Assembly (NCBI GenBank): GCA_028522875.1
Contig: GCA_028522875.1_3659.1
From: a phage
DNA length: 64,000 nt
Strand: one strand, 5' to 3'
In this document: one piece after another, positions 51,165 to 55,187 of the stretch
How the letters are laid out: every line of letters begins with the position of its first letter
Numbering within the stretch: position 1 is the stretch's first letter
Notes under the pieces: model-generated
Databases searched by the model: none
What the model saw: the letters and a program-made list of their open reading frames with translations, nothing else
Told to the model about the DNA's origin: nothing
Program-made: the position numbers and the translations under genes

Positions 51165-54100
51165 ATGAGCATGTGGTCTTTCGATTTTGAGTCATCCGGT
51201 TTGCTGGAAGACCCAGATCTTTATTATCACTGCGGCCTGTTTAAAGAGCTGAATAAGAACCGTTTTATGCTGTTCCTTCCTCTAAATGACCGCACACACT
51301 ACTCTGAAGAGGATATAGAGAAGGCTAAGAACTTTATTCTGGCAAAGAAAACTCTTTATAAAGATTTTGAAGTTCGCATAGCAGATTTTTCAGAGTTGGA
51401 AGGTTGGCTTACAGGAAATTCTGACTGGTCACCCACAGCTTTGAACTGCCACAACTGCTACAGCTACGACTTTATGCTGATGGAGAGATTGTCCGGTATT
51501 CATTTTGATATGTTCCGTGACCCTAAGTGTATGGGGACTATCAACGACCACCAGGTTAATCTGTTTGATACGTTGGCGATGAGCCGAATCTTGTGGCCTG
51601 ATCGCCCTTTACCAAAAGGTTGTCCGGACTCTGTATTCAACCCGGTTACTAAGAAAATGCAGCCTGTTGGTCCTCACGGCCTTATGGCATGGGGCTACGC
51701 CCTTGGTAACCAGAAAGTTCAAATTGATGACTGGCGCGATCTTCCGTTGTGGAAGTATGTGGATCGTGTATTCGAGGACGTTATCATCCAGGAGCTGCTC
51801 TGGAAAGAGCTGGTAGCGGAATCAAAAGGTGTATTCTACGGCAAATCTGACATGCAGAACTTTATGTACGATCCAGCCAAAGAGAAGCCGAAAGGGTTCA
51901 AGAAGATCACCTGGAAGAACGCACTACGTCGAGGCATGCTGCAGCACTTCCTGATGGAGCTGCAGGCCCGTCAGGGTGTATACTTCGACATAGATGGAGC
52001 TATTGCTTTACGTGACCGTTGCGATGCGTGGATGAAAGAAATCGCTGATCGTGTTGAACCACAACTACCTTTAAAAGAGCTGTCAATGTCTCAGCGGCCC
52101 AAGTTCCCTGAAAAGCCGTTTAACCAAGACGGGACAATCTCTAATAATGGTTGGAAATGGTTAAAAGATAAGCTTGGCTATCCTGTAGACATGAGCGCTT
52201 TAGATTTCAAAGCCCCGCCTAAGCGAGCATTTACCTCTACAGGAGATGTCAGCAAGATGGGGATAAAATGGTGTGAAGAGATGGGCTGCAAAGACCCCGA
52301 TAAGATGGCTGATTTCTTGAGAGGCTATATTAAGGGCACTTCCACACCTCACCCTTTGCCTAAAGAGCTGATGGATCAGGCAATAAGTGATCTACAGCAG
52401 AAGCGAATGCCGGACTGCAAGATACCTATGAAAATCAGCAATCAGGACGACATTAAGCGGTATCTGATCAGTGCTGGCTGGCTACCGACAATGTGGAGAA
52501 CTAAGGATGTAACTAAAGATAGCAAGAAGAAAGCTCTACCTGATGCGGATGTTGATGCACGAGTATATGCATATATGGACGAGCTTTTAGAGTCAGAGTA
52601 TTGTGACCTGATTATCAACTTCTGGAACAAAACTGATGCCAAGTTCCAGACAACTGTGCACAAGTTCCGAAGCTTTCCTAACTCTGAAAGGATTAAAAAG
52701 GAAGTATTCGGGAAAATACGTAGAAAAGCCAGAGCACTTATTACTTCTCCGCAACTGAAAGATACGTTTGGACACCTGTGTCCGAATCTTGAAAAATTGA
52801 ACGGAGAGATGGCTAAAGATATCGTCTTGTGGTTATCATTGCGAAACCGCAGATCAGTCCTTGATCCAATCAAGGAGGATAAGGTTGATACTGGTCTTCT
52901 TAATCACCCACGTTTGAAGATTGACCATAAGCTTCCTGCTAAAAGCTCTGGATTAACAAACACTTCCAGACAGAAACACAGTATTTGTGCAAACATGCCT
53001 AAACCATCCCCTAAAGTGGTTATGGGTAAAGAGATGCGCAGTCTGTGGGGTGTTCCTCCTGGATACTTTCAGATCGGTATTGACGGGTCCAACTTAGAGC
53101 AGCTTATCGGGGCTTGGGGTGCCTTTGAGTTCGACAACGGCCTGTATTACGATGTTGTAAGTAACGGCGATGCACATTGTTATTCAGGAGATACACAAAT
53201 TCTCACGGAGAAAGGGTGGGTGAGGTTTGAAGATCTTGATCCGGGAACACAAGTGTTCCAGTACGATCACAACACCTCGTCAATGAACCTTGTTACTCCA
53301 TTAAATTACGTTAAGCGTAGTTATTATGGAGATATGTATCATTTCCACAACAGTAGTGTGGATTTTATGGTTACAGATCAACACAGGATGCTGACTGTGG
53401 ATCACAGAAGCAATAAATTGTTTGAAGATTTGGCAAAAGACCTGAAAGCAGGTAAAGGGTCTAATTCAGGAAGAAGGTTTATCCATGCGGCAGAGTTTTA
53501 TGGGAATACAGCCTTATCTCCTGCCCAGGTTAATTTGCTTATTGCTATTCACGATGATGGGCACTTGCATACAAATAAGGACGGCAGCATCGTGTGCAGG
53601 ATTCAGGTCGGAAAGGGAAGAAAAGTTGCAACGCTTTTAGATACTTTTTCTGCTCTAAGCCTTAGTTATGTAGAGCAGAGCGGGAAAACCACAAAAGGAG
53701 GCTTACTGGCGAGAAGGTTCCAATTCCACGTTCCGTCTTGGGTATTTGAGTTTTTGGACAGCAATAAGGATTTCACCTACAACCTGATGAACCTTGATAA
53801 AGAATCTAAAAACCTGTTTATAGCTTCTTTATCTAACTGGGACGGGTGGGTATCTTCAGAAGGTGGAAAGGTTGCTTACTACTCCCAGGCCGAGTGTAGG
53901 AAGAAATCTGTAGAGGTGGTGTCTGCGCTGGCTACTCAGTGTGGTTTACGGAATAATACGGTGGCGATTCACAAAAAAGGTCGTGCCGTGCAGCACAGAA
54001 TCACAATTGGTAGCAAACAGAGAGCAGGGTTGCTGACACTATCTAAAGAGTCTGTCGAGGTGAGCGGTTCTTTGGTTTATTGCGTTACCGTCCCTTCTGG

Positions 54101-54557
54101 AGCAATCATTGTGAGAAGGAATGGTAAAGTGGCAGTGTGCGGTAACTGTAATAACGCCAAAGCTTACTCTTCTGTAGCAGGCAAGGAGATTTCCCGTAAC
54201 GATGGTAAGCCTATCACGTATGGGGTTATGTACGGGGCACAAAAAGATAAAGTTGCAGATATGCTGGACATCTCTCCAGAGTTGGGACAAAGGGTAATCG
54301 ATGCACTCTGGGATGCCAACCCTGGTCTCAAGGGGCGCAAAGAGGATCTGGAGAAATTCTGGGAAGCAACTGGTAAGAAGTTTATCTACTCTTTTGATGG
54401 TCATGCTATCTGGACCAGATCTAAACACTCTTTACTTAATGCATACCAACAGAATGGTGGTGCATCGCTGTGTGACTTAGTTGGGATACTTATGCACCAC
54501 CAAATGGTGAAGCGTGGGTGGTACGATGAAGGTGTTCGTCGTATTATTTATTACCAT
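51165..54557 (+). CDS. DNA polymerase, family A (T7-like), exon 1; contains an in-frame intein
   Basis: 3'-5' exo motif FDFESSG; motif A IGIDGSNLEQLIGAW; motif B KPITYGVMYG; ORF stops right after ...IIYYH-K at motif C position. Confidence 0.8.
53178..54146 (+). mobile_element. intein (Hint domain with degenerate LAGLIDADG-like endonuclease region) in DNA polymerase
   Basis: 323-codon insert between pol motifs A and B: starts CYSGDTQILTEKGWVRFEDL (block A), TxxH block B at VTDQHRMLT, ends ...RRNGKVAVCGN with +1 Cys; flanks align with T7 pol NGDIHTKNQIA. Confidence 0.6.
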
Positions 54558-54833
54558 AAATAACATTGTGGCTTCATAGAGTAATCTATGTCGAATAACC
54601 TCTTTAACTGCGGGAAGCCTAAACCTTATGGCAAGGTAATCCGCAACGAAGCGCTCAAAAGAGCGAACGCTCAGAGGCCATTCCGAAAGGAAGTAGACCA
54701 GCAAGTGCGGTCGAAATGGGAGGATTCCTGTGGTTGCTTATCATAGGAATATGAGATGGTCCGATCCTACGTGAAAACGTATGGCTATGCACGTAATGGT
54801 GCGGGGTAGCTTAACGACCTACCTGAACTATTG
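54558..54833 (+). ncRNA. group I self-splicing intron (no ORF) interrupting DNA polymerase motif C
   Basis: 5' exon ends in U (54557), intron ends in G (54833); P1 exon CCAU with intron GUGG (54567-54570); core elements P CUGCGGGAAG (54607-54616), Q AAUCCGCAAC (54637-54646), R GUAGACCAGC (54692-54701), S GAGAUGGUCCG (54752-54762); splicing restores YYH-DEYQ. Confidence 0.75.
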
Positions 54834-55187
54834 GATGAGTACCAACTTCAGGTCCCTGACACGCCTAAGTATAAGACTGTGTACACCTTCGACACAATTG
54901 AAGAATTGGAAGCATTTAAGGCAGAGCAGGAGGCCAAACTTCATGTGTTTGACGGTCATAAGTACAAAAAGGCACGCAAGGATGAAAACGGAAACGAAGT
55001 GGTTGACAGAGACGGAAACACGGTGTACGATCCTATCCTGAACGATGACGGAAAGCTTGAACTTATCTGGAGCCCTGTGGGTGAAATGGTGGTGCATTGC
55101 TTCTGGCAAGCTTCTAAAATGATGGGCGTTCCATTCCAGATCACAGGTGAATACTTGTGTGGTCGGAACTGGGGTGATTGTCACTAA
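54834..55187 (+). CDS. DNA polymerase, family A, exon 2 (C-terminal part)
   Basis: Begins GAT GAG (DE of motif C HDE) right after intron-terminal G; C-terminus ...GRNWGDCH parallels T7 DNA polymerase ...GPNWAICH. Confidence 0.75.
   Translation, partial: DEYQLQVPDTPKYKTVYTFDTIEELEAFKAEQEAKLHVFDGHKYKKARKDENGNEVVDRDGNTVYDPILNDDGKLELIWSPVGEMVVHCFWQASKMMGVPFQITGEYLCGRNWGDCH

Follow-up and report, generated by a model that had tools for sequence, protein, structure and literature searches.

A 276-nt group I intron without an endonuclease ORF at motif C of a Vequintavirus family A DNA polymerase gene

Introduction

Can a phage DNA polymerase gene that runs into a stop codon at a catalytic motif still encode a complete enzyme? 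The locus that raises this question lies in a stretch of 64,000 nucleotides of phage DNA, the whole of which is referred to here as the window. Its source is a Vequintavirus (an rV5-like E. coli myophage), and the region shares 96-98% identity with phages 241Ecol014PP, YP-6, EPFV3 and rV5. Immediately downstream of a primase-helicase gene, the polymerase ORF (51165-54563) ends in ...RRIIYYH-K-stop. The last base of the His codon is 54557; an insertion begins right after it, with AAA and UAA. The reading frame restarts at 54834 with GAT GAG (DEYQ...) and closes with a stop codon at 55185-55187. A sequence-only reading of this DNA had placed the end of the ORF at 54563, right after ...IIYYH at motif C, and the resumption of the frame 276 nt further on, from GAT GAG to ...GRNWGDCH; sequence, translation and coordinates agree with both statements.

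We conclude, with a probability of about 0.93, that 54558-54833 is an endonuclease-free self-splicing group I intron within motif C of the polymerase gene of this Vequintavirus, which encodes a family A enzyme. The features of the gene are as follows, in window coordinates, with the evidence for each in brackets.

51165..54557, + strand: DNA polymerase exon 1, family A, T7-like (ORF list; alignment with T7 DNA polymerase structures, E 6e-14)
53178..54146, + strand: putative intein of 323 aa (CYSGDT...VAVCGN) with Cys at +1 (inserted cleanly and in frame when compared with CM1, whose polymerase is intein-less; weak Hint/intein profile hits)
54558..54833, + strand: group I intron, subgroup IA2, 276 nt, without an endonuclease ORF (RF00028; intron-less allele; covariation)
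54561..54563, + strand: in-frame UAA stop, two codons inside the intron (sequence, translation)
54834..55187, + strand: DNA polymerase exon 2, DEYQ...GRNWGDCH and stop, 117 aa (colinearity with uninterrupted polymerases)

Results

The interrupted gene and the exact limits of the intron

Exon 1 terminates with the His codon (CAU) of motif C and also holds an intein, outside which 797 of 808 residues are identical to the CM1 polymerase. The alignment of the ligated protein with T7 DNA polymerase continues through motif C (...yyHDEyql opposite ...wvHDEiqv; T7 also ...VHDEIQV), from which it follows that the intron parts the His from the Asp-Glu. When exon 2 alone was compared with the PDB, T7 polymerase was not retrieved, and for this exon we therefore relied on its colinearity with the C-termini of one-piece polymerases, which extends from Murica (100% identity) through 4MG (64%) to ICP1 (35%). 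The C-terminus had also been described as T7-like. This stands as far as the GxNWxxCH pattern goes, although the resemblance of GRNWGDCH amounts to just five of eight residues.

The covariance model RF00028 matched positions 54548-54783 over its entire length (model positions 1-253 of 253) with 64.7 bits against a curated gathering score of 50 (E 4e-14), and it was the sole match to reach a gathering threshold in an Rfam scan of the whole 64 kb window. This is the outcome that the sequence-only reading had anticipated for a covariance-model search, and the three marks that it had named, namely the 276-nt length, a U before the 5' splice site and a terminal G, are all present in the sequence. 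The Rfam alignment sets the 5' splice site after U54557, in the U-G wobble of P1. The match stops at 54783, leaving the final 50 nt, which comprise the P9.1 and P9.2 hairpins, outside the model. Each interrupted relative gave an equivalent RF00028 match at this site, and the intron-less phage Murica gave none.

Comparison with intron-less homologs, the other check that had been suggested, fixed both boundaries. The 160-aa peptide encoded across the ligated exons is found as one 480-nt piece in Murica, PMBT16 and CarlMeissner (100% identity) and in V18, EdH4 and others (99.4% identity); its coding stretch is 756 nt long (480 + 276) in rV5, YP-6 and navn. The predicted ligated junction reads ...UAUUACCAU|GAUGAGUAC... 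and encodes the junction-spanning peptide IIYYHDEYQLQVPDTPK (...IIYYHDEYQLQ...). After in silico ligation, the last 100 nt of exon 1 and the first 100 nt of exon 2 aligned with Murica without gaps (198/200), and the Murica alignment runs straight across ...TTATTACCAT|GATGAGTACC... Because a shift of the boundaries by one base in either direction destroys this match, the intron occupies exactly 54558-54833. Precise excision gives an intact polymerase gene, as seen in the gapless Murica alignment and in the alignment with T7 at motif C, and the uninterrupted junction is present in 40 Vequintavirus records of the phage collection.

Fold of the intron

The fold was derived by hand on the window sequence; adding 54557 to an intron position gives the window coordinate. 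It consists of the following elements.

54554..54571, + strand: P1, exon CCAU and intron AA (54554-54559) with the guide UUGUGG (54566-54571) (Rfam, MFE fold)
54575..54590 (intron 18-33), + strand: P2 hairpin CAUAGA-GUAA-UCUAUG (6/6 pairs change on both sides, 100% paired)
54599..54604, + strand: P3 5' strand CCUCUU with GGGAGG at 54718-54723 (intron 42-47/161-166; 3/6 compensatory, 100% paired)
54609..54645, + strand: P4, UGCGGG at 54609-54614 with UCCGCA at 54640-54645 (intron 52-57/83-88; Rfam, MFE fold)
54617..54637 (intron 60-80), + strand: P5/P5a hairpin inside P4 (MFE fold)
54646..54668 (intron 89-111), + strand: P6 and the P6a hairpin CGCUC-AAAA-GAGCG (54652-54665) (alignment of ORF-less with ORF-bearing introns)
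54676..54680, + strand: P7 5' strand GGCCA with UGGUC at 54757-54761 (intron 119-123/200-204; 100% paired)
54681..54712, + strand: P7.1 UUCC-GAAA-GGAA (54681-54692, intron 124-135), GUA linker (54693-54695) and P7.2 GACC...GGUC (54696-54712, intron 139-155) (MFE fold, covariation)
54725..54749 (intron 168-192), + strand: P8 hairpin (5/8 compensatory; in the MFE fold)
54768..54823, + strand: hairpins P9 (54768-54781, intron 211-224), P9.1 (54789-54802, intron 232-245) and P9.2 (54805-54823, intron 248-266) (4/5, 2/4 and 3/5 compensatory, respectively; 98-100% paired)
54833 (intron 276), + strand: omega-G, the terminal guanosine at the 3' splice site (G in 13/13 homologs)

P1 joins exon CCAU and A1-A2 of the intron to U9-G14, with the wobble U54557-G54568 at the 5' splice site. 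It is unchanged in all 13 homologous introns that were compared, as is the pairing between exon CCAU and intron GUGG with its U-G at the splice site that had first been proposed for it. A candidate P10, read from the sequence, would pair CAUU at 54564-54567 (C7-U10), adjoining the P1 guide, with GAUG at 54834-54837 of exon 2; its covariation among the 13 homologs was not informative. The window P6 has just two canonical pairs, with an A-C mismatch where relatives have a G-U. P7, which forms a pseudoknot with P3, contains one compensatory and one single-sided variable pair and holds the invariant G-C pair expected of the guanosine-binding site. The elements P and Q (the 5' and 3' strands of P4) and R and S (the 5' and 3' strands of P7), which the sequence-only reading had seen as core-like and correctly ordered, do occur in that order and covary. 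An unconstrained MFE fold (z = -2.7) recovered P1, P2, P3, P4, P5, P6a, P7.1, P7.2, P8, P9, P9.1 and P9.2, with the P7 pseudoknot helix absent from it.

Subgroup IA2 is defined in PMC3428280 by P7.1 and P7.2 placed between P7 and the 3' strand of P3 and linked by G-U-A. The window intron has this P7.1-GUA-P7.2 arrangement, with both helices covarying and present in the MFE fold, and it belongs to IA2.

Homologous introns and covariation

Introns were found at the same H|DE boundary in a range of phages. Other Vequintavirus copies measure 328-329 nt (JEP1, JLBYU08) or 842 nt (CM1, AlexBoehm), and further copies occur in Avunavirus 18-1-2 (317 nt), Mydovirus VLCpiM5b (343 nt), K54_rec2 (771 nt; genus not given in the record), Seunavirus SSE121, LTH01 (772 nt), Certrevirus CB7 (687 nt) and CR9 (772 nt), the Vibrio phages K412 (254 nt) and 10AMN (253 nt), and the Pseudomonas Pakpunavirus SPA01 (792 nt). 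For the covariation analysis, 13 homologous introns spanning Vequintavirus, Avunavirus, Mydovirus, Certrevirus, unclassified Vequintavirinae, Vibrio phages and the Pseudomonas Pakpunavirus were aligned with MAFFT after removal of the P6a insert alone.

When the structure derived from the window was laid on the 13 homologs, 92.6% of cells were paired, compared with 33-40% when the partners were slid by one to three columns, and changes on both sides were observed in 34 of the 66 pairs. The covariation score was 0.442 against 0.197 for shuffles (0/500 reach it) and at most 0.097 for slid partners; the shuffle control overstates significance because the 13 sequences are related, and the slid control is the fairer one. 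Both P3 and P7 were 100% paired across the 13 homologs. P4/P5 were 73% paired as aligned, in a MAFFT alignment that was not hand-edited, and their covariation counts are depressed because some lineages have a 1-nt bulge that shifts the columns. The fold of the intron is under selection, both purifying and compensatory.

Parts of the intron also resemble introns in other genes. Either the P9.1-P9.2 end or the 5' half from P1 to P7.2 shares 73-80% identity with introns that include those of Vibrio phage 1.161.O (locus L020, approximately 1001-1084) and phage Av-05 (KM190144.1, 120740-120872). The other host genes are those for the ribonucleotide reductase small subunit and the rV5-like large terminase. 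From these partial matches it follows that the lineage has colonised several genes.

Endonuclease genes in the intron lineage

The HNH-bearing introns of the Vequintavirinae (842 nt in CM1 and AlexBoehm, about 771 nt in K54_rec2, SSE121, LTH01 and CR9, and 687 nt in CB7) occupy the same H|DE site as the window intron and share with it a homologous core and the same helices. Core identity is about 75-86% where the sequences can be aligned. Most of the HNH-bearing introns have longer P5 and P7.1 arms, whereas those of the window intron are short, and the ORF-bearing CM1-type copies score about 40 bits against RF00028 compared with 64.7 bits for the window.

The absence of a homing endonuclease ORF, which had been claimed from the outset, was borne out among coding-strand ORFs of at least 30 aa searched against Pfam. 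Only one such ORF lies wholly within the intron; it encodes 52 aa (54588-54746), spans P2 to P8 and has no Pfam match. Relatives carry an HNH gene of 127-172 aa in P6/P6a; in the longer ones it encodes 163-172 aa, matches HNH_3 weakly and takes the place of the 14-nt P6a hairpin seen in the window. In each ORF-less lineage P6a is a closed hairpin whose sequence differs by lineage. On these comparisons of sequence, the window intron is evidently the endonuclease-free form of a lineage that carries an HNH gene in P6a elsewhere.

The HNH proteins of CM1, K54_rec2, LTH01, CR9 and SPA01 constitute one family (48-78% identity), and that of CB7 belongs to a different family, so the intron endonuclease gene has been exchanged at least once. 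In HNH-bearing introns (locus L003, 3885-4726, and locus L007, 1730-2500), a purine-rich stretch before the HNH start lies within the 5' strand of P6a and is able to base-pair with the end of the HNH ORF, so that the ribosome-binding site would be sequestered once the intron folds. Free-standing HNH genes are found directly 3' of polymerase exon 2 in 241Ecol014PP (L002, 4709-5356) and K54_rec2 (L007, 2839-3501). These two copies share 51% identity with each other and 31-35% with the intron-borne HNH family. According to the ORF list, no HNH gene adjoins the polymerase gene in the window.

The 52-aa ORF and an 86-aa ORF (54781-55041), both annotated as hypothetical proteins in rV5, were considered as genes and rejected, because they overlap the ribozyme core and a frame of exon 2 other than that of the polymerase, and because the other intron lineages lack them. 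Given their position, in the ribozyme core and over the 3' splice site, both are almost certainly artefacts of annotation.

The intein and a further insertion site

The exon 1 intein is flanked by ...SNGDAH and NNAKAY, and its insertion point precedes motif B. It begins with Cys1 and ends with Asn323 before a +1 Cys, and its penultimate residue is Gly where His is usual. The profile matches are weak and below threshold, if in keeping with an intein: Hint_2 scored 23.6 bits (cut-off 28.4) and TIGR01445 15.4 (cut-off 24.5), and the intein in PDB 6zgq was matched with E 1.7e-4. Most relatives, including rV5, CM1 and Murica, have no intein, and the residue at their +1 position is Gln. In the first 62 nt past the intein (54147-54208) there are 22 differences from intein-less alleles and none from the intein-bearing JEP1; judged by these differences, the segment has the appearance of an extein flank that was co-converted or recoded.

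Motif B (...GKGVTYG|IMYGAQ...) is interrupted by a second group I intron, whose HNH gene is a different one, in Seunavirus, Avunavirus, Certrevirus and K54_rec2 (L008, 705-1346; L007, 674-1345; L006, 1043-1246; L013, approximately 458-1170). Its site is 24 codons past that of the intein, equivalent to a position near 54218 in the window, from which the motif B group I intron is absent. With the intein, motif B and motif C sites, the gene family thus offers selfish elements three distinct points of insertion.

Alleles at the motif C site

Presence and absence of the intron are polymorphic at this one site among close relatives. The phage collection contains 40 intron-less alleles, about 23 alleles with the 276-nt intron and about 45 of the CM1/JEP1 type. 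The same 276 nt, 100% identical, are found in rV5, RudolfGeigy (Bas52), navn, PDX, YP-6 and others, which make up the set of about 23. Copies of the rV5 type have the same intron at the same insertion site as the window, although the exon 1 intein that the window carries is missing from rV5.

Among the window, rV5, 241Ecol014PP, RudolfGeigy and navn, the intron showed 0/276 differences in 10 of 10 pairwise comparisons, while 694 nt of flanking exons (54218-54557 and 54834-55187) differed by 2.3-5% in the same five phages (Fisher p 6e-6 to 4.5e-3, for pairs that are not independent). An invariant intron between diverged exons suggests a recent sweep or spread of the endonuclease-less intron.

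The intron-less alleles are of more than one kind. Flanks of the Murica type are identical to intron-bearing flanks. In 25 of the 40 intron-less Vequintavirus records, identity over a 50-nt junction probe is 88%; other intron-less records are much closer to the intron-bearing flanks. V18, the sole allele of the 88% kind that was examined (L021, 725-742, against 54834-54851), differs from the window at five synonymous third positions within the six codons that open exon 2 (GACGAATATCAGCTTCAA against GATGAGTACCAACTTCAG). The V18-type allele may be a homing-site variant.

Discussion

Proposed splicing and its alternatives

In the mechanism that we propose, the polymerase gene would be transcribed into a single pre-mRNA in which the intron RNA folds as a P1-P10 ribozyme. 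An external guanosine bound at P7 would attack the phosphodiester after U54557, in the U-G wobble of P1. Exon 2 would then dock through P10, and the free 3'-OH of exon 1 would attack after G54833, joining CAU|GAU GAG and restoring the His-Asp-Glu of motif C. Excision of the intein in addition would yield a mature enzyme of 925 aa. A message left unspliced would encode a protein without the motif C carboxylates, because the in-frame UAA lies two codons into the intron. That the intron splices we infer from the covarying fold, this early UAA, the lack of any Shine-Dalgarno-like sequence before exon 2 and the viability of about 23 isolates; these are plaque-forming phages with the identical 276 nt, whose only polymerase gene is so interrupted. 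The CB7 intron, at the same H|DE site and containing the HNH gene CB7_50 between CB7_51 and CB7_49, is reported to splice, on the evidence of RT-PCR and cDNA sequencing (PMC7344957).

Several GenBank records annotate the interval as though no intron existed, with 'hypothetical proteins' inside an intergenic spacer that separates a naturally truncated polymerase from an unrelated small gene. We rejected a plain spacer, to which we attach next to no probability, on account of the above-threshold Rfam match, the covariation, the precise in-frame junction restored in 40 uninterrupted alleles and the colinearity of exon 2 with uninterrupted polymerase C-termini out to ICP1. Separate translation poses a more specific alternative, in which a dead intron would leave a split enzyme made of two polypeptides, the ...YYHK product and an independent exon 2 product, as reported for the NrdA gene of Aeh1, which mobE splits. 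The break would, however, part His from Asp-Glu within a catalytic motif, and the intron-less alleles encode a contiguous protein. A TTG at 54831 does open a 118-aa ORF in the frame of exon 2, yet no Shine-Dalgarno-like sequence precedes it (CCUACCUGAACUA). The records of rV5 and navn list two separate polymerase CDSs, which counts in favour of such an enzyme. The CB7 phage offers precedents of both kinds, since the HNH intron of its nicotinamide phosphoribosyl transferase gene did not splice and the homologous intron at the present site did (PMC7344957). Purifying and compensatory selection on the ribozyme fold would not be expected of a dead intron, and we regard a split enzyme as very improbable.

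The remaining alternative accepts a true group I intron and holds that it is inefficient alone, requiring an RNA chaperone, a maturase-like factor from host or phage, or the translation of exon 1. A minimal intron with a short P5 and a weak 2-bp P6 might depend on such help. All core helices and joining regions are nevertheless kept, and the Rfam score is above that of the CM1-type copies. For the related IA2 introns of PhiI, W31 and Pf-WMP3, PMC3428280 states that mild conditions suffice for self-splicing in vitro. We consider dependence on a helper unlikely and favour a self-splicing intron.

Possible mobility without an endonuclease gene

ORF-less introns can be mobilised in trans in known phage systems, such as T4 I-TevIII/mobE (PMC2790892) and the cyanophage psbA intron with the free-standing F-CphI (cited in PMC3428280). 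The present locus resembles them in that an endonuclease-free intron resides in an essential phage gene and a free-standing HNH gene is located nearby in some relatives; unlike them, the window has no HNH gene beside the polymerase. The invariance of the intron, the kinds of intron-less allele and the free-standing HNH genes allow spread in trans rather than show it. Tentatively, and with some doubt, we suggest that the ORF-less intron might still be mobile, entering intron-less alleles through endonucleases acting in trans, either the intron HNH of a co-infecting CM1-type phage or the free-standing HNH of 241Ecol014PP/K54_rec2, that it might shield the polymerase gene from these nucleases in mixed infection, and that V18-type alleles might be cleavage-resistant escape variants.

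Relation to known introns and existing records

Residue 881 of E. coli Pol I is the motif C histidine (His881-Asp882-Glu883), so an intron at this residue occupies the same site as the window intron. The T7-like phages PhiI and W31 have IA2 introns in the DNA polymerase gene at Pol I position 881, with the HNH gene I-TslI in P6a, as stated in PMC3428280, which summarises Bonocora & Shub 2004. The window intron agrees with theirs in its family A, T7-type polymerase host, in its IA2 subgroup and in having P7.1 and P7.2; an HNH ORF is present only in PhiI and W31. Sensitive blastn of the phage collection retrieved no homologs of the intron in T7-like phages.

Existing records treat the rV5-type intron in different ways. 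In the BASEL records of RudolfGeigy (ORF-less form) and AlexBoehm (HNH form), the polymerase CDS is a two-piece join, with intron boundaries set through comparative genomics (PMC8594841). In the rV5 paper the polymerase is given as 775 aa long and the terminase is the only gene reported to have introns (PMC3606486), and the rV5 record lists, between its two polymerase CDSs, two spurious hypothetical ORFs. A literature search found no paper that explicitly describes the ORF-less rV5-type polymerase intron. The intron call is correct and ordinary, and the finding is already known, given the identical intron in published relatives, the joined CDS in BASEL, the splicing of the CB7 intron and the PhiI/W31 site.

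Conclusions

The present understanding of group I introns is unchanged by this finding, and its consequences concern annotation and the biology of the genus. In many rV5-like genomes, the rV5 reference among them, the annotation shows a polymerase cut short, a separate small CDS called 'DNA polymerase' or 'hypothetical', and ORFs within the intron that are spurious; the correct polymerase product is one spliced protein. The replicative polymerase of this phage would need two splicing events, one of RNA at motif C and one of protein, at the intein upstream of motif B. With intron-less, ORF-less and HNH-bearing alleles at one site, the genus would be well suited to a study of the homing cycle.
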